The notes beneath the pieces are model-generated. The model was not told the DNA's origin. It did not search any database and saw only the letters and a program-made list of their open reading frames with translations. The position numbers and the translations under genes are program-made. From an uncultured Bacilli bacterium (GTDB lineage Bacteria; Bacillota_I; Bacilli_A; RF39; UBA660): DNA of 64,000 bases. Location: NCBI GenBank assembly GCA_947624275.1, contig CANQJR010000001.1, forward strand, positions 1,064 to 65,063. Reading direction: 5' to 3'. This document shows, in pieces, positions 2,121 through 47,271 of the stretch (positions within the stretch are counted from its first letter, which is position 1; each line of letters begins with the position of its first letter).

Positions 2121-4598
2121 GTGAAAAGAAACATCAATAAACTGTTTTATGCCTTTTTATTAATCCAACCATTGATTGATCTCATAACGGGTATAATGAC
2201 TAAGTATGAAATAGGTTTTTTGTCCATCGGTATGCTCATAAGAGGATTATTCATATTGATGATGTTGATCTATTTATTCTTCTTTTGCAATACTAAATAT
2301 AAGAATTTGTCCATTGGTTATGTATTTTTATTATTGTTGTATTGTATCGCATACTTTGTCTCTAAGACAGAGTTGTTGACCAACACGGCCTTTTTCATCA
2401 ACGATTTTACTTATTTGTTCAAATACATCTATTTTTTATTGTTGTTCATAACTATCTTGAACTTCTATCATCAATTCGCTTTGGAACGCGAGACAATAAT
2501 AAAGATATTTGTCATCGATTTATCGGCATACGTCTTTTTGATCATTTTGCCTTTTATCACCAACAGCAGTTTTACTTCATATTATCAAAATAAAGGGTAT
2601 GGAGTAGTCGGATGGTTTTACGCTGCCAATGACATCAGTAATATTCTGGCCATCTTATTTCCGTTACTAATCTATTCAATGAATAAAAAATTTGATTTTT
2701 TTAAAGTGTTATTAGCTGTGTTTGCCATCTTTTCCAGTTTTTTAATTGGTACTAAAGTAGCTTATTTTGGACTTCTTTTAACCATTGTTTTCAGCATCAT
2801 TTATTATCTATTCTTTTTTAAGAAGAGATGGAAACATCTGATCATGTTGGTTCTTCTCTTACTATTTGCCATTTTTTTTGGAAAAAATTCTTATGTCATC
2901 GAAAATATTAAGAATCGCATTGATAGATATGACCATTATCAAGATACGGGAACGAATGAAATTGATGACGATCTCGATATCATTGTCAAAGATGGCGATA
3001 GTGAAATCAGTCTCGTATTATTGAGTTCTAGAGATAGGATACTTCAAAATACATATGATATTTACAAGACGCGTGCTTTGGGAGAGAAACTTTTTGGAAT
3101 CGGTTTTTCCAATCGACCAAGTGTCGATAACTCTCGCATTGAAAAATTGATCGAAATGGATTTCTTTGACGTGTTATTTCATGGAGGAATCATCTTAGTG
3201 ATCTTATATCTATTACCATATCTCTTCCTCCTCAGCTATTTCGTGAACTATCTCAAAGTGAACAAATGGCATATCGATATGTTGGGATGGACCTTGGGTT
3301 ATGCGATTGGCCTTGGCTTTTGCATCAGTTGTTTTGGTGGACACCTCTTTTCTTCACCAGCCGTGCTCATATATTATACAATGCTGTTGATTCTCTTCCT
3401 CGATGTCTATGAGACCGAAAAAAAATTGAAAAAGAGAATATCATTCCTTTTGTTGCATTTGGGAAATGGTGGTATCGAAAGATCGACCATCAATACGGCA
3501 AATGCTTTGGCTAAATATTTTGACATAGAGTTAGTCGTCACTTATAAACTTTCTGAAGAATTGTTATATGACGTCGATAAAAAAATAAAAATAACTTATT
3601 TGATCGATAGTGATATAGCTCTACGTCTACAAAAATATAAAGAAATGTTAAAACGCCGTGAGCTGAGAGCTCTTTATCAAAGTCTTAAAAACGATTATTT
3701 TAAAACGCATCGCTTTAAAAATTTTTGGAAAGATGTTAGTGATGGTTGTCGCGTTTTGGTTTTGAAGAGAAAGACGATGATCAACTATTTAAAACAGAGT
3801 GATAGCGATATCATCATTTCGACGCGAATGGAATACTCGACGCTTTTGAGTCAATATGGACATAATAATTGTAAAAAGATAATGATTGAGCACCAGCATC
3901 ATCGTCACAATGCGAAATATATTAAAAAGTTTAGTACAGAACTTAAGAATATCAACTATTTGGTAGCATTGACGGAGAGTTTGCGAAGCGATTACTATCA
4001 TTTCATCGCTCGCGATGCTAAAACGGAGATAGTGTGCATTCCCAATATGATAGTTGATTTCCCAAGACGAACAGCTAACTTAAAAAGTGGTACCGTCATC
4101 AGTATCGGTCGTTTAGTTGAAGGCAAAAGAGTTGATGAAATAGTGGAAGTAGCGGCTAAAATACCAAAAGTCAACTTTGAAATAATTGGCGATGGTGATC
4201 AGATGGACAAACTTAAGAAGTTGATCGATGAAAAAAATATCAATAACGTCAATCTCCTCGGTCAATTGAAAAATGACGAAGCCTTAAAACATCTATCCAA
4301 AGCCAGTCTCTTCATCATGACTAGCGTCACCGAATGCTTACCAATGGTTTTGTTGGAGGCCTTCAGTTATGGTGTTCCAGTCGTCGCTTATCAAACAGAG
4401 AGTGGTGTCTCTGATATTGTGGATGATGGTATCAATGGCTATGTCATTCAAAATCGTCACCGTGAAGAAATGATTGAAAGGGTTAACGAATTGATGAATG
4501 ATCCTAAAAAAAGACAAACTTTTGGCAAAGAGGCAAAAAAGAAAGCGCTCTCTTATAGTGAAGAAGAAGTCATAAAGAAATGGTTAGAAATATTATGA
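2121..4598 (+). CDS. Fusion protein: polytopic O-antigen ligase/polymerase-like (Wzy_C) membrane domain + GT4 (GT1 superfamily) glycosyltransferase
   Basis: GTG start with RBS AGGAGGTGA. About 10-12 TM helices with a RALGEKLFGIGFSN loop and an FHGGIILV (His) motif, as in WaaL/Wzy. C-terminal half has the GT4 signature (EAFSYGVPVVAY...GINGYV). Confidence 0.7.
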   Translation: MKRNINKLFYAFLLIQPLIDLITGIMTKYEIGFLSIGMLIRGLFILMMLIYLFFFCNTKYKNLSIGYVFLLLLYCIAYFVSKTELLTNTAFFINDFTYLFKYIYFLLLFITILNFYHQFALERETIIKIFVIDLSAYVFLIILPFITNSSFTSYYQNKGYGVVGWFYAANDISNILAILFPLLIYSMNKKFDFFKVLLAVFAIFSSFLIGTKVAYFGLLLTIVFSIIYYLFFFKKRWKHLIMLVLLLLFAIFFGKNSYVIENIKNRIDRYDHYQDTGTNEIDDDLDIIVKDGDSEISLVLLSSRDRILQNTYDIYKTRALGEKLFGIGFSNRPSVDNSRIEKLIEMDFFDVLFHGGIILVILYLLPYLFLLSYFVNYLKVNKWHIDMLGWTLGYAIGLGFCISCFGGHLFSSPAVLIYYTMLLILFLDVYETEKKLKKRISFLLLHLGNGGIERSTINTANALAKYFDIELVVTYKLSEELLYDVDKKIKITYLIDSDIALRLQKYKEMLKRRELRALYQSLKNDYFKTHRFKNFWKDVSDGCRVLVLKRKTMINYLKQSDSDIIISTRMEYSTLLSQYGHNNCKKIMIEHQHHRHNAKYIKKFSTELKNINYLVALTESLRSDYYHFIARDAKTEIVCIPNMIVDFPRRTANLKSGTVISIGRLVEGKRVDEIVEVAAKIPKVNFEIIGDGDQMDKLKKLIDEKNINNVNLLGQLKNDEALKHLSKASLFIMTSVTECLPMVLLEAFSYGVPVVAYQTESGVSDIVDDGINGYVIQNRHREEMIERVNELMNDPKKRQTFGKEAKKKALSYSEEEVIKKWLEIL

Positions 4599-35306: not shown

Positions 35307-35336
35307 TTGACTATGACAAAAAAATTATATTACAAT
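35307..35336 (+). promoter_or_regulatory. Sigma-A-type promoter of nrdD (TTGACT-18-TACAAT)
   Basis: Near-consensus -35 and -10 hexamers about 40 nt upstream of the nrdD ATG. Confidence 0.5.
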
Positions 35337-35376
35337 GGCATTGAAAAGAGGTAATATTGAAAGGAGTATTTTGTTT

Positions 35377-37686
35377 ATGAATGAAGAGACTTTAAACAAC
35401 TTGAAAGTAGTCAAAAGAAATGGTAAAAAAGTTGATTTTGACGGAACAAAAATTGCTGTTGCAATAAAAAAAGGTTTTGATAATTTAAAAACGGATCGTT
35501 ATGCATATTTATCTTTAGGTAATGAATATACTGAAAAAGATAGCCAAAAAGTATTTCAATCTGTTATGAAGAGAATAGATAAAGAATATAGAGACGCTGA
35601 TAAGATTAAAATTGAAGAAATTCAAGACATGATTGAAGATGAACTCAAGAAAAAAGGTTATACAGATGTATATGAATCTTTTGCTGATTATCGTGAGAAG
35701 AGAAGACAATCACGTGAAATGTTCTCCGATGATAAAAAGATGCATAAATTCTTGAAGACGATAGAAGGTTTAGGACTAAAGTCATCTGTTGAAGACAACA
35801 CTAAGAGAGAAAATGCTAACGTCAATGGTGATACAGCTATGGGAACGATGCTTCAATACGGTTCAACTGTATCCAAAGAATTTGCTAAAGATTATTTGAT
35901 GAAAAAGAAATTTGCTGATCTTCATGACAATGGTGATATTCACATCCATGATTTGGATTTTATGCCAATGGGAACTACTACTTGTATGCAAATCGATTTG
36001 GAAAAATTGTTCAAGAATGGTTTTTCGACAGGACATGGACATTTGAGAACACCAAATGACATCATGAGTTATACAGCTCTAGCTGCTATCGCCATCCAAT
36101 CAAATCAAAATGATCAACATGGTGGACAGAGCATTCCTGCTTTTGATTATTATATGGCTCCAGGAGTGTTGAAGACGTTTAAAAAACAATTTAAACAGAC
36201 GATTGCTGATCTATTAGATTATACTGATTTTAATAAATTTATAAACATGAGTACCATTGCTAAAGACATCGATAAAATTGATAGTATTGATGTCGATCTC
36301 GCAATGTTTGAGAAGTATGAGAAAGATAGTGGACAACTACATCGCTTATTTTCAATGGCTTATGATAAAGCTCTAGCTAAAACTGATCGCATCACTTTTC
36401 AAGCTATGGAGGCTTTCGTTCACAATTTGAACACGATGCATTCAAGAGCTGGTGCACAAGTACCATTCTCATCTATCAATTTCGGAACAGATACATCACT
36501 AGAGGGAAGAATGGTCATCAAGAATTATTTGTTAGCTGTCGACAAAGGATTAGGACATAGTGAGACTCCAATTTTCCCAATATCAATTTTTAAGGTAAAA
36601 GAAGGAGTTAACTATAATCCAGAAGATCCAAACTACGATTTATTCAAATTGTCTTGTAAAGTTTCAGCTAAGAGATTATTCCCTAATTTTTCATTTATCG
36701 ATGCACCATTCAATCTTCAGTATTATAATCCTAATGATTATCGTACAGAAGTTGGTTATATGGGATGTCGTACGAGAGTTTTAGCCAATGTCGTCGATCC
36801 AGATCGTGCCATTACACCTGGACGTGGTAATTTGTCATTTACATCAATCAATTTGCCACGATTAGGAATTAAACATGGTAAGGTATTGGGTAGAGAAGAA
36901 ACTGATTTAGATGGTTTCTTTGAAGAACTCGGTGAGTTGGTTGAGACGGTCAAAGATCAATTATTGGAGAGATTTGAGATTCAATGTAGTAAACATATCT
37001 ATAACTTCCCATTCTTACTCGGACAAGGCGTTTGGTTAGATTCTGAGAAGTTAAAAGATAATGACCGCATTAGAAGAGTGTTGAAACATGGAACTTTAAG
37101 TATCGGTTTCATCGGACTTGCTGAATGCTTAAAAGCTTTGATAGGACAACATCATGGTGAGAGTGACGAAGCTCAAGAATTAGGTCTAAAAATAGTTAAA
37201 TTCATTAGAGATAAATGTGATGAATATTCACAACGCTATAATCTAAACTTTACTTGTTTAGCAACACCTGCTGAAGGGTTGAGTGGAAGGTTTACAAGTA
37301 TTGATAAAGCCATATATGGTAAGATCAAAGGCGTTACAGATCGTGCTTATTACACCAATTCTTTCCACGTTCCAGTATATTACAACATAACTATTAAAAA
37401 TAAACTTCATAAGGAAGGACCATATCATGCCTTGACTAATGCTGGACACATCTCTTATATCGAATTAGATGGTGATCCAAGTGAAAACTTAGATGCCTTC
37501 GAAAGAGTGATAAGAATTATGAAAGAAGAAGGAATTGGTTATGGAGCTGTCAACCATCCTGTTGATCGCGATCCTGTTTGTGGATATGTCGGGGTTATTG
37601 GTGACGTTTGCCCAGGTTGCGGAAGACGCGAGGGTGAAGGTGTAAGTTATGAGAAAATGACTACATTAAATTGTGGTTGTAAATAA
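35377..37686 (+). CDS. nrdD: Anaerobic ribonucleoside-triphosphate reductase (class III), catalytic body ending after the Cys-rich zinc-ribbon segment
   Basis: N-terminal ATP-cone (VVKRNGKKVDFDGTKIAVAIKKGF); class III RNR core; C-terminus ...VCGYVGVIGDVCPGCGRREGEGVSYEKMTTLNCGCK then stop; RBS AAAGGAG. Confidence 0.85.
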   Translation: MNEETLNNLKVVKRNGKKVDFDGTKIAVAIKKGFDNLKTDRYAYLSLGNEYTEKDSQKVFQSVMKRIDKEYRDADKIKIEEIQDMIEDELKKKGYTDVYESFADYREKRRQSREMFSDDKKMHKFLKTIEGLGLKSSVEDNTKRENANVNGDTAMGTMLQYGSTVSKEFAKDYLMKKKFADLHDNGDIHIHDLDFMPMGTTTCMQIDLEKLFKNGFSTGHGHLRTPNDIMSYTALAAIAIQSNQNDQHGGQSIPAFDYYMAPGVLKTFKKQFKQTIADLLDYTDFNKFINMSTIAKDIDKIDSIDVDLAMFEKYEKDSGQLHRLFSMAYDKALAKTDRITFQAMEAFVHNLNTMHSRAGAQVPFSSINFGTDTSLEGRMVIKNYLLAVDKGLGHSETPIFPISIFKVKEGVNYNPEDPNYDLFKLSCKVSAKRLFPNFSFIDAPFNLQYYNPNDYRTEVGYMGCRTRVLANVVDPDRAITPGRGNLSFTSINLPRLGIKHGKVLGREETDLDGFFEELGELVETVKDQLLERFEIQCSKHIYNFPFLLGQGVWLDSEKLKDNDRIRRVLKHGTLSIGFIGLAECLKALIGQHHGESDEAQELGLKIVKFIRDKCDEYSQRYNLNFTCLATPAEGLSGRFTSIDKAIYGKIKGVTDRAYYTNSFHVPVYYNITIKNKLHKEGPYHALTNAGHISYIELDGDPSENLDAFERVIRIMKEEGIGYGAVNHPVDRDPVCGYVGVIGDVCPGCGRREGEGVSYEKMTTLNCGCK

Positions 37687-37709
37687 AAAAAGAAGAGAGG
37701 TAGAAAAAT

Positions 37710-37892
37710 ATGAAAAATGAAATGAAAGAAGAAGAAAAGAAAAATGTAAAAATGGTAGGGGAAGGTGTAGGATTCGAAAGAATTAGAAGAATTACTGGAT
37801 ATCTAGTAGGTACTGTTGATCGCTTTAACGATGCTAAACGTGCTGAAGTAGAAGATCGAGTAAAACATGGTGGAAAAGAAGTTTATCTATAG
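37710..37892 (+). CDS. Separate 60-aa glycyl-radical domain protein matching the NrdD C-terminal tail (RITGYLVG...KRAEVEDRVKH)
   Basis: Own RBS (GAGAGG) and ATG 23 nt after the nrdD stop, in a different frame. Contains the NrdD-type glycyl radical motif R-I-T-G-Y-L and the tail GK/AKRAEVxDRVKH. Confidence 0.65.
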   Translation: MKNEMKEEEKKNVKMVGEGVGFERIRRITGYLVGTVDRFNDAKRAEVEDRVKHGGKEVYL

Positions 37893-37894
37893 AG

Positions 37895-38455
37895 ATGAAC
37901 ATTCGTTTAGCTGCACCGCTTCAGAGAAATAGCATTGTTGATGGAGAAGGAATTAGGGCAGTTGTTTGGACACAGGGGTGTACGCATAATTGCCCTGGTT
38001 GTCACAATCCAGAAACTCATGATTTGACTGGTGGTACTTTGGTGGATATTGAAGAATTGAAAAAAGAGATTAGGTCTTTGAGTGAGGAAAATGGCGTGAC
38101 GTTGAGTGGTGGCGATCCTTTCTTTCAACCAAAAGAATGCCTAGAAGTTGCTAAATGTTGTCATGAATGTGGCTTAAACGTTTGGTGCTATACTGGATAT
38201 ACATATGAACAACTAATGGCATTAGCGAAAAAAAAGAAACAGATTTTGGCTTTTCTGCAAGAGATAGATGTCTTAGTAGATGGACCTTTTATCCTTAAAG
38301 AAAAGAGTTATGATGTCAAATTTCGCGGTTCTAAGAATCAACGCATAATTGATGTCCGTCAGAGTCTAAAGACTAATAAAGTAGTTGAAATTCCTAAATA
38401 TCGTTATGTTGAAAACGCTGTTCCTGAAGAGAGAGAAATAAAGGTATACATTTGA
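37895..38455 (+). CDS. nrdG: Anaerobic ribonucleotide reductase-activating protein (radical SAM)
   Basis: CTHNCPGC radical-SAM cluster motif; position downstream of nrdD. Confidence 0.85.
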   Translation: MNIRLAAPLQRNSIVDGEGIRAVVWTQGCTHNCPGCHNPETHDLTGGTLVDIEELKKEIRSLSEENGVTLSGGDPFFQPKECLEVAKCCHECGLNVWCYTGYTYEQLMALAKKKKQILAFLQEIDVLVDGPFILKEKSYDVKFRGSKNQRIIDVRQSLKTNKVVEIPKYRYVENAVPEEREIKVYI

Positions 38456-38480
38456 GAGTGCTTGATGGCACTCTTTTTGT
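38455..38480 (+). terminator. Rho-independent terminator after nrdG
   Basis: AGAGTGC-ttgatg-GCACTCT stem followed by TTTTTGT. Confidence 0.7.
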
Positions 38481-38504
38481 TATAATAGATTTGAGGAGAT
38501 AGGT

Positions 38505-38684
38505 ATGGATAATAAAGATGTGATTGCAAAAGAAAATATGCTGTCAAAAGAGATGATGGAAAAAATAAAAAATAAAGCACAAAAAAATGATGAGGGTGAT
38601 GAGGCGATTGCTGATTTCACTTATGATGCTATGATATCTAAAAAAGAGAACTATGAAGACATCTATAAGGATTATGGTGATTGA
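38505..38684 (+). CDS. Small acidic hypothetical protein (59 aa, MDNKDVIAKENMLSKEMMEKIKNK...)
   Basis: RBS GAGGAG 6 nt upstream; TATAAT box upstream; below the ORF-track cutoff. Confidence 0.35.
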   Translation: MDNKDVIAKENMLSKEMMEKIKNKAQKNDEGDEAIADFTYDAMISKKENYEDIYKDYGD

Positions 38685-38686
38685 TC

Positions 38687-39508
38687 GTGAAAAGAGCTGA
38701 TTTGCACAATCACACTTATTATTCAGATGGTGAGTATTCCTTGGCGGAAGTTGTTAAAAAGGCCAAAGAAAAGGGTTTGACGATGATTGGCATCACTGAT
38801 CATGATAATGTCGAAAGTTATAATGATTATCAAAAAATGAGAGATAAAATTGATATAGATGTTTTAATTGGAGTTGAATTGTCATCCAATCATCGGGGTC
38901 ATCGAGTTCACATCATCGGCTTTTTTTATCACAATAATCCCTTAAGTAAAGAATTGTTAGATTATTTGGAACAACTTCGCATTAAAAGAATCAATCGAGC
39001 TAAAGAGATGATTGCCAATTTAGATAGATATTACAATATTAAAATTGACTATGAAGAATTGGTTAAAAAAACGAAGTCAATCATCGCTCGACCTCATATG
39101 GCAAGATATATTGCTGAAAAATATCATATGAGTGAAGAAGAGGCTTTTTCTAGATATTTAACTAGTGATGGCAAAGCTTATGTTCCCTCATCCAATATTG
39201 CAACTGAAGACGCTATTGAATTGCTGCATCGCAATAATGCGATCGCGATTTGGGCCCATCCAGTCTTAAATAGAGGTGAGTTTCCCGAAAAGGAAATAAT
39301 TGATATGGGAATTGATGGCATCGAAGGATTTTATCCCAATAACACCAAGATGGATACTATGCATTATCGCCATTTGGCTAATACGTATAATTTACTCTTT
39401 ACAGCGGGGAGCGACTATCATGATGAACATTCCCACAGCGCTATTGGAACGTGTTATCTCAAGGATAGAGATATTGATAAACTGTTGAAAAAATTAAAAC
39501 AAAAATAA
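38687..39508 (+). CDS. PHP-domain metal-dependent phosphoesterase (TrpH/YciV-like)
   Basis: ADLHNHTYYSDGEYS...GITDHDN PHP motifs; GTG 38687 after GGTGA. The ORF track begins at TTG 38681. Confidence 0.8.
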   Translation: MKRADLHNHTYYSDGEYSLAEVVKKAKEKGLTMIGITDHDNVESYNDYQKMRDKIDIDVLIGVELSSNHRGHRVHIIGFFYHNNPLSKELLDYLEQLRIKRINRAKEMIANLDRYYNIKIDYEELVKKTKSIIARPHMARYIAEKYHMSEEEAFSRYLTSDGKAYVPSSNIATEDAIELLHRNNAIAIWAHPVLNRGEFPEKEIIDMGIDGIEGFYPNNTKMDTMHYRHLANTYNLLFTAGSDYHDEHSHSAIGTCYLKDRDIDKLLKKLKQK

Positions 39509-39510
39509 AA

Positions 39511-39536
39511 AAAGTTACATCAAAGTAACTTTTTCT
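39511..39536. terminator. Bidirectional terminator between the PHP gene (+) and the surface-protein gene (-)
   Basis: AAAGTTAC-atcaaa-GTAACTTT stem with T/A runs on both sides. Confidence 0.65.
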
Positions 39537-39539
39537 TCA

Positions 39540-40478
39540 TTATATAAATTTCTTTTTCTTACTTGCTATGATTAGGACAATAGCACCTATAGCAACGATA
39601 CCACTAACTATGTATGGAGTAGAGATACCAGTATGTGGATTATCTGGTTTTTCACAATATTTTTTATAATACTCTTCAAATGCTTCTTTATCTTTTAATG
39701 GTTCTCCATCTTTTCCATAATATTTACCATCTTGTTCTCTACATTTTGGATTACACATTTTGTAGTAGTTCTCTTTGCTGACACTCTTACCATTTTGGTC
39801 GTAATAAGTAGATCCTTCTACACGGCAACCACATACTTTTTTATAATTGGCTTCATCAGTTTTAACACCTGATAGGTCATAATAATTGTTACCTTCTTTG
39901 GTACATTTACATTGACCAGCATCCTTAGTAGGTTCTACTTCATAAACTCTAGCTGTTTGATATTCCCAGTCTGTCCTAGAGTTTCCTTTACCTGAAGCAA
40001 AGACATCAACAACTAAGATATAATATTGTTTGTCACAAGACTCTTCAAGTTTTACTGTTTTTGTCATAGGTTGATCTGGGCACCAATATAAACTGTCTCT
40101 TACATCTTGTTGAAATTGATTGATATCACTATCTTCAACTTTTTGACTTGCCTGTCTTTTAGCGTCGATCTTATCTTGTTCAGCTTTTAATTTGTCATAT
40201 ACTTCTTTACTTATTTTAGTCAATTGCGCATTGATTTCATAATCTCCCTCATTGACAGTGTAGTTCCAGTTCTCATCATCATAAACCGCATGAACTTCAT
40301 CATAAGGTGTTATCGTAACTTTGATATCACCATTTGTCAACGTTTCTGACAATTTGAAATGATGACGTTTGTCGAAGATGAATTGTGAATGTGAATATGC
40401 ATCAGTGTGTCTATATCCTACAAAGAAACAAGTCATGGCAATGACTAACATGCTAAGTAGTTTAAATCCTTTTTTCAT
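39540..40478 (-). CDS. Cys-rich secreted surface protein with a C-terminal sortase-B-type sorting signal (NPHTG + TM + KKKKFI)
   Basis: Signal peptide; repeated YYD-x-(N/S)GK and CxC segments; C-terminus ...NPHTGISTPYIVSGIVAIGAIVLIIASKKKKFI; RBS GGAGTGA. Confidence 0.7.
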   Translation of the reverse strand: MKKGFKLLSMLVIAMTCFFVGYRHTDAYSHSQFIFDKRHHFKLSETLTNGDIKVTITPYDEVHAVYDDENWNYTVNEGDYEINAQLTKISKEVYDKLKAEQDKIDAKRQASQKVEDSDINQFQQDVRDSLYWCPDQPMTKTVKLEESCDKQYYILVVDVFASGKGNSRTDWEYQTARVYEVEPTKDAGQCKCTKEGNNYYDLSGVKTDEANYKKVCGCRVEGSTYYDQNGKSVSKENYYKMCNPKCREQDGKYYGKDGEPLKDKEAFEEYYKKYCEKPDNPHTGISTPYIVSGIVAIGAIVLIIASKKKKFI

Positions 40479-40670
40479 ATTTTTATCACTCCTTACTATA
40501 CTAAAATATTAACATAATTATTTGTCGCTTTCAATGATATTAGTGTAAATAATTGTGTATTTATTAAAATTATGTGTAAAAACTTTACATTTATACGTCA
40601 GACAAAACATTGTTATTGTTAATAAAAGGCAATTGTGTTAATATATTAATAGGATAGAGGAGATGATAAA

Positions 40671-42320
40671 ATGCATAAAATATTGATCGTTGTCAAAGAT
40701 AAAACTTTATCATTTTCACTCTATACTTCACGTGACAAAGTAGAGAATTTGAACGATACTAATGTTGTCAATACTGAAAGAATGATTTTTAGTGATACGT
40801 ATATAAAAAATAATTTAGATATAGTTAAATCTTTTTTTAACCTCATCGCTTTAAAAAAGGGAATTGATACCATAGACGTTTCTCTAAATGCGATCTTTCC
40901 CATTGCTTTTAAAATTACCGAAGATATAAGTTCCATTAAAAATGTTAATTTTTTGGAAAACAAAGTCATCAGTTATGTCGTTTTTGAATGTCTATTAATG
41001 AGTAAAAATATTGTCAATATCAATTGTTATGCCATTCCTAACTTTATGTTTGACAAATTGGATATCGATAAAAATATGAAAATTACATCGCGATGTGAAG
41101 TCTTGTTTTTGAGTAAATTCATGGAAAAAAATAATTTCCACAGTTATTCAGATGTATATTATAAGAAAAGTATTGATATAGATTGTGAATTGGACAAATT
41201 GGATCAAGAGGACATTCTCTATTTTTTCAAGTTCAATAATAATTTGAAGGTCATCAATCTCTACCATGTCAATTCTAAAACGATCGACTTCATATTGGAG
41301 ACGATTAAGGCCAATAATAAGAAGAATATTAAAATTGTTCTAAATCAAGAGAAGACTGAAAGAGATATCATCAAAATTTATGATGATATGGTTGACAAAT
41401 ACAGGAAATTGGCCAAGGACAACAATATAAAATTCAAAATAAATTATACTAAAGAGTATCGTGACAAAAATACTTTAAAACAAGTCAATTTAAATTTTTT
41501 ACGTCTCATACTATTCGTTTTTGTCTTGTTGGCCATATTCATAAGTGTTGTTTTTTATATCAAGTATCGATATGATACAGAAGATATAAATGATGAGATG
41601 GAAACTATTAATGATAGAATTGATCTCAATGCGATTGATAAGTTTTTAAATGAAGAAGAAAACTTAAATGATGATTCTGATGAGACGTCAACTGATGATG
41701 AGAGTGGTGAAAAAGATAAAAATCCTGATACCGATTCTCGTCCTGATCCTTATTATTACAATTTTAAACAAGTATTTTCTGAACTGTTAAAAATAAATGA
41801 TGAAACTGTAGGATGGCTCAAAATAAAAAATACTAATATCAATTATCCCGTGGTTAAACACAGCAATAATTCATATTATTTAGACCACAGTTACTATAAA
41901 CAAAAGAATGGCCATGGTTGGATATTTATGGATTACCGCAACAACAGTGAAGTGTTGGACAAAAATACAATCATTTATGGTCATCGCAACAATTATAATG
42001 TCATGTTTGCACAACTCAAAAATGTCTTGGATAAGAGTTGGTATACTAAAGAGAGCAATTTGACGATCACTTTTAATACTGTTAAACAAAATCTAAAATG
42101 GAAGATATTTTCTATTTATACTTTAAAAAACACTGATGACTATTTAAATGTTTACTTTAATAATGATATAGCTTATAGCAATTTCTTGAATAAAATAAAA
42201 AAGCGCAGCATTCATGACTTCGATGTCGAAGTGAGTACTGATGACAACATTTTAACTCTATCAACCTGTTACAACAATTCAGAATACCGTTTGGTAGTCC
42301 ATGCGAAATTGATAAAATAA
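40671..42320 (+). CDS. srtB: Atypical class B sortase: about 270-aa N-terminal cytoplasmic domain of unknown function + TM + acidic linker + SrtB catalytic domain
   Basis: C-terminal 200 aa carry SrtB motifs (VGWLKIKNTNINYPVV, IIYGHRN, LTLSTC, RLVVHAKL); TM LILFVFVLLAIFISVVFYI mid-protein; RBS GAGGAG. Confidence 0.75.
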   Translation: MHKILIVVKDKTLSFSLYTSRDKVENLNDTNVVNTERMIFSDTYIKNNLDIVKSFFNLIALKKGIDTIDVSLNAIFPIAFKITEDISSIKNVNFLENKVISYVVFECLLMSKNIVNINCYAIPNFMFDKLDIDKNMKITSRCEVLFLSKFMEKNNFHSYSDVYYKKSIDIDCELDKLDQEDILYFFKFNNNLKVINLYHVNSKTIDFILETIKANNKKNIKIVLNQEKTERDIIKIYDDMVDKYRKLAKDNNIKFKINYTKEYRDKNTLKQVNLNFLRLILFVFVLLAIFISVVFYIKYRYDTEDINDEMETINDRIDLNAIDKFLNEEENLNDDSDETSTDDESGEKDKNPDTDSRPDPYYYNFKQVFSELLKINDETVGWLKIKNTNINYPVVKHSNNSYYLDHSYYKQKNGHGWIFMDYRNNSEVLDKNTIIYGHRNNYNVMFAQLKNVLDKSWYTKESNLTITFNTVKQNLKWKIFSIYTLKNTDDYLNVYFNNDIAYSNFLNKIKKRSIHDFDVEVSTDDNILTLSTCYNNSEYRLVVHAKLIK

Positions 42321-42346
42321 AAGAGAGATGTCGACCATTTCTCTTT

Positions 42347-43372
42347 TTATGTGTTAATTATTTCACACGTTATAAACAATTTGTGCAAGTTTTTATATAT
42401 GTTGTACATGTTGTTGTACTCTTTCTTTTTCTTCCTTTTATAAGGAACGTATTTTTCTAATATTTCATCAATAGAAAAATTTTTGATGAAGATGGTATAT
42501 CTGCCATCTGGTTTGAAAATGAATATTTTTTTATTAGTCAATATCTTATCCAAAGTACTAATTTTTTCCATCAATGGTGGAGTGATGATGAGGCGACTCT
42601 TTATTTCGTCATTGCTATAGACATCATATTTGTTAGAAAATTCACTGCTTTCGAGATTGATCTTTTGATCGTCAATCAAATAATATTTTTTAGGGATCTT
42701 CCAATCTTTAGGTATGACTTTGATATTGATGTCATTGTCTTTTTTCATATCTGATCCAATATAACAACCTGTAAATATGTCTTTTCTCTTTTTGATGTGA
42801 TAGGTGCGTAAAAATTTGCGATTGCCAACATAAAAATACTCTTGTTTTTTCGACTCATCTATGTAGAAGAGTTCGATATCGGATAGGACTATGTCATTCT
42901 TGCCGATTTGCACTTTGATGTAATTTGATCCATTATATTCCAATTCGTTAATGTTGAAAAGTTCTGTTTTGACGAATGAAGATTTGCTGACGCGGTTAAA
43001 GGGCAATACTTTCGCATCGCCATCTTTAGAGGCATAAATGATCAAATCATCCAAGATTTGGCGCTTTACTTTTTTCAATAATTCTTTATTGGAATGGCGA
43101 TATGATGCATAAAAATAGATAATCACTCCTAAATTGTAGGTCAATGTCACGACGATGAAGAAAAATAAATAATTGATCTCATAAAAAAATATCCAACAAA
43201 TGATAGTGGGAATAAAGGCTAATATGCCAATGACGATGAAAAACAATAAAAGATTTCTAGTTTTTTCATCATCCATTTCCTGATAGTATTCATCTAAAAT
43301 ATCGCTGTATAATTCATCATAAAAACTTTTAAAATCTTTCTTTTCAAACATGTTATCACTTCGCAATTTCAA
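42347..43372 (-). CDS. Hypothetical two-TM membrane protein (possibly DUF3137-like)
   Basis: Two adjacent TM helices after about 40 aa, long cytoplasmic C-domain. Start uncertain (M at 43372, or MFEKK at 43351). Confidence 0.4.
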   Translation of the reverse strand: MKLRSDNMFEKKDFKSFYDELYSDILDEYYQEMDDEKTRNLLLFFIVIGILAFIPTIICWIFFYEINYLFFFIVVTLTYNLGVIIYFYASYRHSNKELLKKVKRQILDDLIIYASKDGDAKVLPFNRVSKSSFVKTELFNINELEYNGSNYIKVQIGKNDIVLSDIELFYIDESKKQEYFYVGNRKFLRTYHIKKRKDIFTGCYIGSDMKKDNDINIKVIPKDWKIPKKYYLIDDQKINLESSEFSNKYDVYSNDEIKSRLIITPPLMEKISTLDKILTNKKIFIFKPDGRYTIFIKNFSIDEILEKYVPYKRKKKKEYNNMYNIYKNLHKLFITCEIINT

Positions 43373-43441
43373 GGTTATTATATCATCATATCTGTTGAAA
43401 AAATAGTATTAATGTATTATAATTTTTTTAGGTGGTTAAAG

Positions 43442-44185
43442 ATGGAAAAAGGTTTTAAAGTAGATGGTGTAAAGATTGTTTTAAGTGTTGTAGCGATGCT
43501 CATCCTCTTGTGCGTCGTCATCTTAAAATATGATGATATCATCAAAAAGTCAACCGATGTAGAAGAAAAAATGGATGCCTTACAGTTCAAAGAAGACTAT
43601 GAAAAATTGAATGGTGAAGTAAATCCTAATAATGATAAAAATTATCCCAAGGTGGAGATAGATGAAAACAATCCTGTCAAATATAGTACAGCTGATGAAA
43701 TAGTTGAAGTTTTAGAAAAGGGGACAGGAATTATTTATTTGGGTTATCCTAAGTGTCCTTGGTGCCGCAATGCTGTTCCAGTGTTGTTACAAGCAGCTAG
43801 TGATGCTGAAGTGGACAATATATATTATATTGATATGTATGACGAAAGAGATAGTTATACAGTCAAAGAAGATGGCACTTTAGTGAAGAGTAAAAATGGT
43901 ACGGAAGGATATCAAAAATTGCTCAAAGCATTAGATGGCATTTTGGATGAATATTACGTGACGGATCTTGATGGTCAAGAAATAGATACGAATGAAAAAA
44001 GAATCTATGTACCGCTCGTCGTCTTTGTCAAAGATGGTGAAATAATCGGTAGTCATGCTGATACTGTCGAATCGCAAAAAGATCCCTATGTCCTCTTGAA
44101 TGATGAGCAAAGAGAAGAACTATATGAGATATATGATAAGTACATTCATGAAATGTTGAATGATTTATGTGACGAAAGATGTTAG
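43442..44185 (+). CDS. Membrane-anchored thioredoxin-fold protein with CPWC motif (bacteriocin-transport-accessory / thiol-disulfide oxidoreductase-like)
   Basis: N-terminal TM then IIYLGYPKCPWCRNAVPVL thioredoxin-like active site; RBS GGTGG. Confidence 0.55.
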   Translation: MEKGFKVDGVKIVLSVVAMLILLCVVILKYDDIIKKSTDVEEKMDALQFKEDYEKLNGEVNPNNDKNYPKVEIDENNPVKYSTADEIVEVLEKGTGIIYLGYPKCPWCRNAVPVLLQAASDAEVDNIYYIDMYDERDSYTVKEDGTLVKSKNGTEGYQKLLKALDGILDEYYVTDLDGQEIDTNEKRIYVPLVVFVKDGEIIGSHADTVESQKDPYVLLNDEQREELYEIYDKYIHEMLNDLCDERC

Positions 44186-44258
44186 ACATCTTTTTGTTTG
44201 ACATAATTTTTAGTAATTGGTATATTTAATTAATAAAATGTTGACGAGGAGAATTTTT

Positions 44259-44891
44259 ATGAAAAAGTTGGATAAAAATAATATGTCAGTTAAAATAATC
44301 GTTTTATCTTTGATATTTATCTTTCCACTTGGAGTGTACTTTTTAGTAAAACGTGCTGAAAATCGTTTACACAATCTTTGTAAAGATGCTAAATATTTGA
44401 TATTTTGTGGATATTTAGTTCTCTTTTCAGTAATTATTTATTTTTTGTGCAATTACAGTTTTTACATTTCTCTAGCAGATAGTCATATGTCTTTCGATAT
44501 GTACAATTTTAACTTCATATATATATACATATACCTAATCATGGTCACAATCAGTTGTCTAGTCGGTGGTTATCACTTGTATAACAAATGTCGTAGATTG
44601 GTCATATATACAGAATTTATCAATATTCGTCATATTAAAGATATCAATATGATTGTCGATGAAACTGAAGAAAGTGTTGATACGGTAAAGAAAAATATTG
44701 TTCAGCTCATCGAAAAAAAACATTTATTAAATGTGAAATTAGTAGGGGAGAACATCGTGACTACTAAGAAGAATAATGGTGATGAAATATTGGTGCGCTG
44801 TAAGAAATGTGGCAATATTGAAGCTTTGATCAAAGATACTGAATGTTGTGATTTCTGTTATAACAAACTTAGTAGACGTGATAAGATTTAG
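44259..44891 (+). CDS. Hypothetical membrane protein with a C-terminal CxxC...CxxC zinc ribbon
   Basis: 3-4 TM helices then RCKKCGNIEALIKDTECCDFC; RBS GAGGAG. Confidence 0.45.
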   Translation: MKKLDKNNMSVKIIVLSLIFIFPLGVYFLVKRAENRLHNLCKDAKYLIFCGYLVLFSVIIYFLCNYSFYISLADSHMSFDMYNFNFIYIYIYLIMVTISCLVGGYHLYNKCRRLVIYTEFINIRHIKDINMIVDETEESVDTVKKNIVQLIEKKHLLNVKLVGENIVTTKKNNGDEILVRCKKCGNIEALIKDTECCDFCYNKLSRRDKI

Positions 44892-44901
44892 CGTTAAAGT
44901 T

Positions 44902-44928
44902 GAGAGAGTTAGAACTCTCTTTTTTTTA
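44902..44928 (+). terminator. Rho-independent terminator
   Basis: AGAGAGTT-ag-AACTCTCT stem followed by TTTTTTTT. Confidence 0.7.
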
Positions 44929-44965
44929 TTGCATATTTTATAGTAGCAGTTCATAGAGGTGAAAA

Positions 44966-45202
44966 ATGAAAAATTTATCATTAAAAGATATTTATATAGA
45001 CGAAGATGCCTATGTCTTAAAAATTGCTACAAATAGTGATATCAAACGTCGTCTGTTGGATATTGGACTTAGTAAAAATACCTTGGTTACACCACTTTTT
45101 GATAGTGTCAGTGGAGGTATAAGGGCTTATAAAATTAGAAATTCTTTGATTGCCATTCGCGATGATGACGCTGAAAAGATAATCGTGAGGCGAGGACTAT
45201 GA
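44966..45202 (+). CDS. feoA: Ferrous iron transport protein A
   Basis: 78-aa SH3-like FeoA immediately upstream of, and overlapping, feoB. Confidence 0.8.
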   Translation: MKNLSLKDIYIDEDAYVLKIATNSDIKRRLLDIGLSKNTLVTPLFDSVSGGIRAYKIRNSLIAIRDDDAEKIIVRRGL

Positions 45203-47271
45203 GAAAGATAAAAATAGGTTTAGCTGGCAATCCTAACGTCGGTAAAAGTACCATTTTTAATTCTTTGACTCATTCTAATCAACACACTGGTAATTGGGCG
45301 GGGAAGACAGTGGACAATAAAGTGGGAATCATGAAAAATGATCATGATCATTTCTATATTTATGATTTGCCAGGTACTTATTCTCTATTGCCACATTCTG
45401 AAGAAGAACGAATAGCTAGAGATTTTTTAGTCTTTGAACAATATGATTTAACCATTGTCGTCTGTGATGCCTCATCTTTGCTCAGAAATTTGAATTTGGT
45501 TTTACAGTTAAAAGAAATAAATCGCGATTTGATGGTGTGTCTCAACTTGATTGATGAAGCTGAGAAAAAAAATATTGTCGTTGACGTCAAACGTTTAGAA
45601 GAGTTGTTAGATGTACCAGTTGTAACTTGTTGTGCCCATTCCCATCGGTCAATCATGGCTTTGAAGAGAGCGATATGTGATCAGGTGATGCATGCCGATA
45701 AAAAGCAACATGAAAAAAAAGTCACAATCAGTTATCCTCCCTTCTTAGAAACAGCTATCGCAAAGATTGAAGATTGTTTAGAACGATTCAATCTTGACAT
45801 CGACAAGCGTTGGTTAGCTTTGAACATTCTGAGAGAAGATGCATTGATAATTGACCAAGTAAACGACATTTTAAAGACCGATATCATGACTGATGAATTG
45901 CAAAGAGTTCTCAGTGATATTAAAATGGAATTATTAAAAGAAGATGTCTTGATATCAGAAATAGATGATTTGATCGTCAATTCTATCAATGATATGGCTA
46001 ATCACATTTATGAAGAGTGTGTCCACGTTGGCAAACACAGTTTAAAAGAGCGCTATCTCGATAAAATTTTGACGAGTAAAATATGGGGAATTCCCATTAT
46101 GCTTCTCTTTTTAGCAATCATTTTTTTGATAACTATTAAAATTAGTAATTATCCATCGGAATGGTTGTTCTCACTATTTTCTCATCTGGAAATCATTTTA
46201 AAAGAGTGCTTAGTAGATCTAAAAATACCAAGTATTATAATCGATATGTTGATTAATGGTGTCTATAAAGTCACCACTTGGGTAATAAGTGTCATGTTGC
46301 CACCAATGATGATCTTTTTTCCGCTTTTTACACTTTTAGAAGACTTCGGCTATTTGCCCAGAATCGCTTTCAATTTAGATGGAATATTCCATAGATGTTC
46401 ATCGTGTGGCAAACAGGCATTGACGATGTCGATGGGATTCGGTTGTAATTGTGTCGGCATCACTGGAGCCCGAATCATCGATTCTAAGAGGGAGCGCTTA
46501 ATTGCCATTTTAACTAATTCTTTCATTCCTTGCAATGGCAAGTTTCCAACTATTATCGCCATCATCACGATGTTCTTCGTCGGACTGAACAACAATTTCA
46601 AAAGTTTATTGTTGTCAACGGGTATTCTTTTATTAATTGTCTTATTGGGAATTTTGATGACCTTTTTAGTGTCTAAAATATTATCAAAAACGCTTTTGGC
46701 CGGTTATCCTTCTTCTTTCGTCTTGGAGTTGACACCTTTTCGAAGACCACGCATTGTCAAAACGATTATCACCTCAGTTTTTGATCGAACCCTATTCGTA
46801 CTATTTCGGGCTATCACCGTAGCTATTCCAGCTGGGTTCTTCATTTGGATTTTGGCCAATGTCAATGTCGGTGATATGAGTCTCCTCAATCATCTAGTCA
46901 ATTTCTTCGAACCATTTGGGCATTGGTTCGGTGTCGATGGCGTCATCATCGTTTCCTTTTTGTTAGGGTTCCCCGCTAATGAAATCATTATGCCCATCAT
47001 GTTGATGTGTTACTTAAATAGTGGAACCCTCGTCGACTACAACAGTCTATTAGAATTAAAGACGCTATTAATAGATAATGGTTGGACGATTTTGACGGCC
47101 ATATCAGTAGTCATTCTCTTCGTTCTCCATTATCCTTGTTCAACGGCCTGCCTGACGATAAAAAAAGAGACGGACTCTTGGTATTACACTTTGCTTGCCT
47201 GCATCATACCGACTTGTTTGGGCTTGTTGATCTGCCTAGTATTAAATCTTCTGTTCGGTAGTATGTTTTAA
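45199..47271 (+). CDS. feoB: Ferrous iron transport protein B
   Basis: N-terminal G-domain GNPNVGKSTIFNSLT, polytopic membrane domain. Confidence 0.9.
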   Translation: MRKIKIGLAGNPNVGKSTIFNSLTHSNQHTGNWAGKTVDNKVGIMKNDHDHFYIYDLPGTYSLLPHSEEERIARDFLVFEQYDLTIVVCDASSLLRNLNLVLQLKEINRDLMVCLNLIDEAEKKNIVVDVKRLEELLDVPVVTCCAHSHRSIMALKRAICDQVMHADKKQHEKKVTISYPPFLETAIAKIEDCLERFNLDIDKRWLALNILREDALIIDQVNDILKTDIMTDELQRVLSDIKMELLKEDVLISEIDDLIVNSINDMANHIYEECVHVGKHSLKERYLDKILTSKIWGIPIMLLFLAIIFLITIKISNYPSEWLFSLFSHLEIILKECLVDLKIPSIIIDMLINGVYKVTTWVISVMLPPMMIFFPLFTLLEDFGYLPRIAFNLDGIFHRCSSCGKQALTMSMGFGCNCVGITGARIIDSKRERLIAILTNSFIPCNGKFPTIIAIITMFFVGLNNNFKSLLLSTGILLLIVLLGILMTFLVSKILSKTLLAGYPSSFVLELTPFRRPRIVKTIITSVFDRTLFVLFRAITVAIPAGFFIWILANVNVGDMSLLNHLVNFFEPFGHWFGVDGVIIVSFLLGFPANEIIMPIMLMCYLNSGTLVDYNSLLELKTLLIDNGWTILTAISVVILFVLHYPCSTACLTIKKETDSWYYTLLACIIPTCLGLLICLVLNLLFGSMF

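Follow-up and report, generated by a model that had tools for sequence, protein, structure and literature searches.

The sortase locus

We examined a 64,000-nucleotide (nt) stretch of DNA from an uncultured Bacilli bacterium (contig CANQJR010000001.1; hereafter the window), in which the gene for a 549-amino-acid (aa) class B sortase (SrtB) with a long N-terminal extension lies divergently to a gene for a 312-aa protein, a plausible cognate substrate of the enzyme. Both open reading frames (ORFs) had been reported in a first-pass annotation made from the sequence, and both were recovered (Table 1). The sortase ORF is free of internal stop codons, has in-frame stops upstream and carries a GAGGAG ribosome-binding site (RBS) 7–12 nt 5' of its ATG; AAGGAG precedes the substrate gene. 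Rfam returned no RNA element in positions 38400–45300, divergent spacer included, and thus no match there to a riboswitch (e.g. cyclic di-GMP (c-di-GMP) control as in C. difficile).

Table 1. Features of the sortase locus and of its downstream flank (window positions).
Feature	Position	Strand	Basis or remark
Candidate cognate substrate gene, 312 aa	39540..40478	-	Signal peptide, ~160-aa conserved domain, three Cys-bracketed repeats, sorting signal
Predicted cell-wall sorting signal: NPHTG (39627-39641), hydrophobic segment, SKKKKFI tail	39543..39641	-	
Three Cys-bracketed repeats, aa 190-216, 218-242, 246-275	39654..39911	-	Pattern C-x4-G-x-YY-x2-3-G-x8-Y-x3-C
Divergent intergenic region, 192 bp	40479..40670	.	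RBS for both genes
Class B sortase gene, 549 aa, uninterrupted	40671..42320	+	ORF listing; TIGR03064 above cut-off; homologues
N-terminal domain (N-domain), aa 1-272, predicted cytoplasmic	40671..41486	+	AlphaFold2 (AF2): beta-hairpin, then ~9 beta-alpha units
Sole transmembrane helix, aa 276-298, N-in/C-out	41496..41564	+	Hydropathy; position and charge bias in 119 homologues
Acidic linker, aa 299-362, predicted extracellular, weakly conserved	41565..41756	+	Residue composition; identity
Class B sortase catalytic domain, aa 363-549	41757..42317	+	Profile and PDB matches
His438 (motif IIYGHRN)	41982-41984	+	Motif alignment
Cys533 (motif LTLSTC)	42267-42269	+	Motif alignment
Arg540 (motif RLVVHAKL)	42288-42290	+	Motif alignment
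Terminator-like hairpin between sortase gene and convergent DUF3137 gene	42319..42347	+	
DUF3137 membrane protein gene, convergent with sortase gene	42347-43372	-	In L001, L002, L018; absent from L017
Thioredoxin-like membrane-anchored protein gene	43412-44185	+	CPWC and C-terminal CDERC
feoA	44966-45202		
feoB	45199-47271		

The C-terminal domain is a class B sortase

By all sequence comparisons made, the C-terminal part of the 549-aa protein is a genuine sortase domain of class B (TIGR03064 / MEROPS C60B). Pfam Sortase matched aa 383–547 (E=2.4e-15), and the NCBIfam equivalog TIGR03064 ('class B sortase') matched aa 364–543 with 163.1 bits, its curated cut-off being 153.75. The top PDB sequence matches were all class B sortases, led by B. 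anthracis 2oqw (E=2.3e-37) and followed by those of C. difficile, L. monocytogenes and S. aureus; these matches span aa 365–549 (E 2e-37 to 1e-32). The catalytic motifs IIYGHRN, LTLSTC and RLVVHAKL, named in the first-pass annotation, align with 2oqw (YGHR, TLSTC and RLVVHAKL in the alignment), and His438, Cys533 and Arg540 are each at least 80% conserved in 120 homologues. The possibility, raised with the initial proposal, that this domain would prove to lack the catalytic Cys or His is thus at odds with both the profile score and the alignment.

Every defining feature of class B that could be checked is present except one, the type II topology with a short N-terminal anchor: here the anchor stands at aa 276–298, after a folded 272-aa domain. 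Because the match begins at position 57 of the 235 positions of the TIGR03064 model, and because solved enzymes are only 206–254 aa long, the usual N-terminal anchor region is replaced in this protein. We regard the displaced anchor as an architectural departure, which does not exclude the catalytic domain from class B.

The N-terminal extension is predicted to be cytoplasmic

The proposed architecture of a ~270-aa upstream part, a mid-protein transmembrane helix and an acidic linker was confirmed, with boundaries at aa 1–272, 276–298 and 299–362, respectively; the linker holds 24 D/E and 6 K/R. No N-terminal signal peptide was found in the 549-aa sortase, and aa 276–298 is its only strongly hydrophobic segment. 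In 119 full-length homologues, the single transmembrane helix begins at residue 268–294, and the flanking charges are asymmetric (mean 3.6 K/R vs 1.6 D/E in the 15 residues before the helix, 1.6 K/R vs 4.1 D/E in the 15 residues after it). A sortase domain has to be extracytoplasmic to function. From the missing signal peptide, the single helix, the positive-inside bias and this functional requirement taken together, we infer that aa 1–272 are cytoplasmic, as had been suggested for the window protein.

The N-domain is conserved and found only with this sortase

A homologue search listed at least 120 matches with 37–67% identity, 516–612 aa in length and covering 95–100% of the query, apart from one 361-aa entry; those that have a database name are called 'class B sortase [Bacilli bacterium]' or '[Mollicutes bacterium]'. 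Among these listed homologues, mean identity to the query is 43% in the N-domain, 59% in the sortase domain and 23% in the linker. Invariant or nearly invariant positions of the N-domain are N28, T30, N31, F40, Y44, R141, S148, F150, M151 and N154 together with YSDxYYKK; of these, T30, F40, Y44 and N154 are invariant. Its conserved motifs read LNxTN, FSxxYIxxN, RxExxFxSxFM and YSDxYYKK. The N-domain thus appears to be under constraint.

A profile hidden Markov model of the N-domain, searched against 1.84 billion representative proteins, found only 247 clusters (at 50% identity) at E<=1e-3, a lower bound for the lineage; in all of them the match begins near residue 1. The complete matches are 504–565 aa long, i.e. 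include the sortase, to which the domain is always N-terminal; shorter entries (270–350 aa) terminate within the transmembrane helix or the linker, as contig-end fragments would. No N-domain outside a sortase context was found among the 1.84e9 proteins. Since the complete matches carry the sortase and the short ones resemble contig-end fragments, the N-domain appears to be exclusive to this sortase clade.

The fifteen genomic loci inspected come from uncultured gut metagenome-assembled genomes (MAGs; goat, rabbit, rumen and Hadza human) labelled Bacilli, Erysipelotrichaceae, Tenericutes or Clostridium sp. We conclude that the N-extended architecture is the norm across one gut lineage of uncultured Bacilli. 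The description of this enzyme as atypical therefore holds against characterised SrtBs and not within its own lineage. The window organism encodes two PBP5-type carboxypeptidases, VanY, SpoVAC and SpoVAD, from which it is predicted to make peptidoglycan and spores.

The N-domain is predicted to adopt an alpha/beta-repeat fold

When the full protein was compared with Pfam and NCBIfam, no family matched the N-domain. A Pfam search with the N-domains of 29 diverse members (E<=1) gave no consistent match and no leucine-rich repeat (LRR) family, and the N-domain profile matched none of the PDB sequences at E<=10. On these searches, the N-domain belongs to no described family.

Structure prediction, advised in the first-pass annotation, gave a confident AF2 model of the N-domain from a 29-sequence alignment (predicted local distance difference test (pLDDT) 87.9, predicted TM-score (pTM) 0.76). 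The model consists of a beta-hairpin, a loop at residues 29–32 and about nine beta-strand/alpha-helix units with a period of 24–30 aa. The loop, which carries the LNxTN motif, is modelled with pLDDT <50 yet is highly conserved. Foldseek with this model found nothing at E<=1e-3. The best matches were the NLRP3 LRR (E=2.9e-3, TM-score 0.24), SKP2, ribonuclease inhibitor (RI) and the tropomodulin LRR, mixed with barrels, so that only weak structural neighbours of LRR/RNI-like or TIM-like kind emerged, partial and not significant. Some segments fit LxxLxLxxNxL (e.g. I65–I75 and I89–V99). No LRR sequence profile matched aa 1–272, and hhalign self-comparison found no internal sequence repeat (E=0.42). 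The initial description of this part as repeat-like therefore does not hold at the sequence level and is upheld in the beta-alpha units of the AF2 model. Given these predicted units, the sub-threshold Foldseek matches and the absence of a self-repeat or an LRR profile match, the N-domain is best described as an uncharacterised, predicted alpha/beta-repeat domain of faint LRR-like character, outside the LRR family. Its charge is net basic (43 K/R vs 37 D/E).

The neighbouring gene encodes a candidate substrate

The 312-aa protein has what is expected of a sortase substrate at both ends. Its N-terminus is a typical signal peptide (MKKGFKLLSMLVIAMTCFFVG...), and its C-terminus reads NPHTG-ISTPYIVSGIVAIGAIVLIIAS-KKKKFI, with a hydrophobic segment of 21 aa, i.e. 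the SrtB-type sorting signal pointed out originally is present. The protein stays below the curated cut-offs of the NPXTG-anchored family NF033846 (16.9 vs 23.5 bits) and of the QVPTGV family TIGR03065 (14.6 vs 21.35 bits); in sequence it resembles these families without being a scored member of either.

Between the two ends lie a ~160-aa region kept in the few relatives of the protein, including conserved C133 and C148, and the Cys-bracketed repeats. The CxC pairs and YY repeats noted in the first-pass annotation are real (two CxC pairs, C190/C192 and C216/C218, and three YY-x2-3-G repeats), and the CxC pairs turn out to be the junctions of consecutive repeats. Metal binding or disulfide stabilisation had been offered as explanations; because paired Cys stand at both ends of each unit, one disulfide per repeat unit appears more likely than a metal site. 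The substrate family is small and fast-evolving (5 matches in the homologue search), and a three-repeat profile likewise had 5 matches, in small proteins, among 5.8e9 proteins searched, which makes the repeat a rare module; Pfam had no match to it. An AF2 model of the substrate (pLDDT 59, from only 4 sequences) was too poor for use.

A distant relative of the substrate, the 505-aa surface protein P0125 (L019, 183–1700), contains seven tandem 25-aa YF/YY-G Cys-bracketed repeats, has a weak thioester-domain (TED) match before them and ends in a VVPDTG sorting signal. With seven copies placed between the TED match and VVPDTG, the Cys-bracketed repeats resemble units from which wall-anchored proteins build a stalk, a longer one in P0125.

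The sortase gene is linked to candidate substrate genes across genomes

In five other genomes (L001, L002, L017, L018 and L014), orthologues of the substrate gene divergently adjoin a gene for a long SrtB of 514–555 aa. The sorting motifs of these orthologues are of the form [NS]PxTG (NPKTG, NPKTG, NPSTG, SPKTG and NPGTG), and [NS]PxTG-x-TPY...SKKKK[FY][IM] is kept among them. The genes nrdD-nrdG-PHP lie on the far side in 4 of the 5 loci. Downstream of the sortase gene, the content varies: DUF3137 in the window, L001 and L002, DUF3137 with LemA in L018, and VanY with PBP5 in L017. Since the downstream genes differ between loci, the conserved unit appears to be the substrate–sortase pair only.

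More distant relatives of the sortase, at ~40% identity (L003–L013 and L015), have different left flanks, and their long SrtB gene is invariably convergent with a pilus-type operon. That operon (e.g. L008 7628–10972) encodes a SpaA-domain pilin ending in [VI]P[KATP]TGL, a class C-like sortase of ~228 aa and a ~260-aa membrane protein, which matched no family. With the pair in five genomes and this operon in the ~40%-identity relatives, the long SrtB family appears always to be linked to predicted sortase substrates.

Other genes of the window

The genes for the thioredoxin-like CPWC protein and feoAB are present downstream, as first observed, but are not conserved neighbours: the thioredoxin-like gene and feoB occur only in the window and L002 and are absent from L001, L017 and L018 (feoA was checked in the window only). 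As the gene neighbourhood differs among loci, a functional linkage of the sortase to these genes as a conserved feature was dropped. The thioredoxin-like protein is a weak match to, and not a member of, PedC/BrcD TIGR01295 (28.4 vs a cut-off of 120 bits); this CPWC protein could oxidise secreted Cys-rich proteins, although it is not a conserved sortase neighbour. Positions 44217–44891 (+) encode a conserved membrane protein with a C-terminal zinc-ribbon-like CxxC...CxxC (CKKCGN...CCDFC), which has counterparts in L001 (10607–11245) and L002 (9576–10238) and no Pfam or NCBIfam family match.

On the other side of the pair, the anaerobic ribonucleotide reductase NrdD is seemingly split (35335–37892, +). 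A 783-aa ORF reaches only position 531 of the 562 of Pfam NRDD, and a 60-aa ORF at 37710–37892 (...RIRRITGYLVGTVDRFNDAKRAEVEDRVKH) looks like the glycyl-radical C-terminal piece. Because a small Pfam-NRDD ORF (56–60 aa) recurs in two other genomes (L017 7416–9929 and L018 7392–9892), the split seems to be conserved and not a sequencing error. Farther away, 2121–4598 (+) encodes an 825-aa protein in which an O-antigen-ligase-like membrane domain is fused to a GT4 glycosyltransferase; small ORFs after it, Alg14/Alg13-like to judge from their N-terminal sequences only, suggest a surface-glycan locus.

A proposed mechanism and its alternatives

We interpret the locus as a dedicated sortase–substrate pair of a walled, spore-forming gut Firmicute of the Bacilli MAG lineage, and for this enzyme–substrate part would put the probability at roughly 85%. 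The 312-aa precursor would probably be exported by Sec, and the hydrophobic segment near its C-terminus, together with the KKKKFI tail, would retain it in the membrane. Between Thr and Gly, NPHTG would then be cut by Cys533 in the extracellular sortase domain, and the substrate would be moved onto peptidoglycan, as expected from family membership. The enzyme would be a bitopic N-in/C-out protein, in which the flexible acidic linker of ~64 aa extends the reach of the catalytic domain from the membrane.

For the cytoplasmic N-domain, the most likely role, to which we tentatively give about one chance in three, is that of a protein–protein interaction platform that positions or gates the enzyme from inside. 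Its partner would be cytoplasmic or membrane-associated, e.g. the secretion, division or wall-synthesis machinery; focal and septal enrichment of sortases has been documented in E. faecalis.

The interpretation as a whole, enzyme–substrate part and N-domain role together, seems to us somewhat more likely than not, and several observations weigh against it. The N-domain shows neither an LRR family match nor a sequence repeat, and in the compared loci no conserved cytoplasmic partner gene stands beside the sortase gene. Its polar motifs LNxTN, YSDxYYKK and RxE may equally mark a small-molecule or catalytic site. For the enzyme–substrate part, sortase activity and NPHTG specificity are predictions from family membership and from gene linkage to [NS]PxTG proteins, and the substrate falls below the NF033846 cut-off.

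The most novel alternative is a 'two-sided' sortase, whose N-domain would sense from inside the tail that the membrane-retained precursor leaves in the cytoplasm, or attach to the translocon or division machinery that delivers this precursor, so that the selection or timing of anchoring is set from the cytoplasm. To our knowledge, no sortase class is on record with a cytoplasmic control layer of that kind, which would moreover employ a fold that lacks any characterised relative; we consider it unlikely, at something like one chance in five.

Somewhat less probable again is outright substrate recognition, in which the N-domain binds the cytoplasmic tail SKKKK[FY][IM]-COOH, so that the precursor is captured on both membrane faces and delivered to the catalytic domain. 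This tail is identical or nearly so in five orthologues whose bodies are only 32–41% identical, the pilins beside the clade-B enzymes likewise have tails of a fixed pattern ([YFI][KR]N[EG]K[KQE][CN]), and the N-domain is confined to one sortase family that is itself always genetically linked to substrates. However, the whole sorting signal (motif, transmembrane segment and tail) is conserved, for which common descent and ordinary retention constraints suffice; the substrate tail of L014 differs (KSNKFTKI); and the net basic N-domain offers no obvious complement to a poly-Lys tail.

We rate just as low the chance that the N-domain works in the cytoplasm as a sensor or an enzyme, which binds a small molecule or becomes modified, e.g. 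at the loop of invariant Thr30, and thereby regulates the sortase; in a variant of this idea, it would act independently of sorting, with the transmembrane fusion merely a membrane tether. The invariant polar motif LNxT30N in a low-confidence loop (pLDDT <50 at residues 29–32), the conserved YSDxYYKK and RxExxFxSxFM and the TIM-like structural matches are consistent with such a function. Yet those matches are partial and not significant, no enzyme or ligand-binding family was matched by sequence, and a single transmembrane helix followed by a disordered acidic linker would be a poor conduit for allostery to an extracellular domain.

Finally, that the long ORF is an artefact of a missed stop or frameshift fusing two genes, the N-terminal 270 aa being a separate gene, or that only a short isoform starting near the transmembrane helix is made, is hardly credible: although some database entries of 270–350 aa carry the N-domain alone, they look like contig-end fragments, the window ORF is continuous, at least 120 listed homologues from independent assemblies share the long architecture (essentially all over its full span), and the N-domain is conserved at the protein level, so that a fusion artefact was excluded.

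Significance

In the prevailing view, a sortase is a minimal ectoenzyme of one domain, with no more than a few residues inside the cell, and the way in which substrates and places of wall synthesis are located is a matter of continuing debate. Our literature searches on N-extended, multidomain or large-cytoplasmic-domain sortases found no description of such an enzyme. The catalytic domain and its reaction are otherwise conventional; the new part is the cytoplasmic domain, which would add a domain family absent from Pfam and the PDB. Lineage-wide fixation of a folded ~270-aa cytoplasmic domain on SrtB would imply a selected intracellular input into surface-protein anchoring, and the partner of the N-domain, once found, would give a direct handle on the coupling of anchoring to intracellular events. 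Should the cytoplasmic domain turn out to sense substrates or the state of the cell, the significance could be greater; otherwise the finding is a moderate surprise.

Comparison with known systems

In overall layout (folded cytoplasmic N-domain, single transmembrane helix, linker and extracytoplasmic domain), the window SrtB may be likened to bitopic envelope proteins such as RodZ, in which an extracellular activity is positioned by the cytoplasmic domain; the likeness is no more than an analogy, with no sequence or fold relationship. The predicted succession of about nine beta/alpha units in the N-domain, with a period of ~24–30 aa, may be likened to RI-like/Cys-containing LRR proteins (ribonuclease inhibitor, NLRP3 LRR, SKP2 and tropomodulin).

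At the level of the locus, the substrate gene adjoins the sortase gene as in isdC-srtB, whereas the window locus contains no heme or Isd genes. Among the PDB matches is also the class B pilus sortase of S. pyogenes, Spy0129 (3psq, E=1e-25), which acts on [EQ]VPTG pilins. The ~40%-identity relatives, with a long SrtB gene adjoining that of a SpaA-domain pilin, resemble this system; unlike it, the window neighbour is small, non-SpaA and carries NPHTG, and the pilin operons of the relatives hold a separate class C-like sortase.

The SrtB of C. difficile cuts signals of the form (S/P)PXTG between Thr and Gly (PMC4155245), a class with which the [NS]PxTG motifs found here overlap, and both there and here, general anchoring in a gut anaerobe may fall to a class B enzyme. 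In the window family, in contrast, Asn prevails at the first motif position, an extra cytoplasmic domain is present and there is no c-di-GMP riboswitch.

With the solved SrtBs of B. anthracis (2oqw/1rz2), S. aureus (1ng5/1qwz), C. difficile (4ux7/5gyj) and L. monocytogenes (5jcv), the catalytic domain aligns end to end. In those enzymes a short anchor stands directly before the catalytic domain, whereas in the window SrtB the anchor is set between a 272-aa domain and a 64-aa linker.

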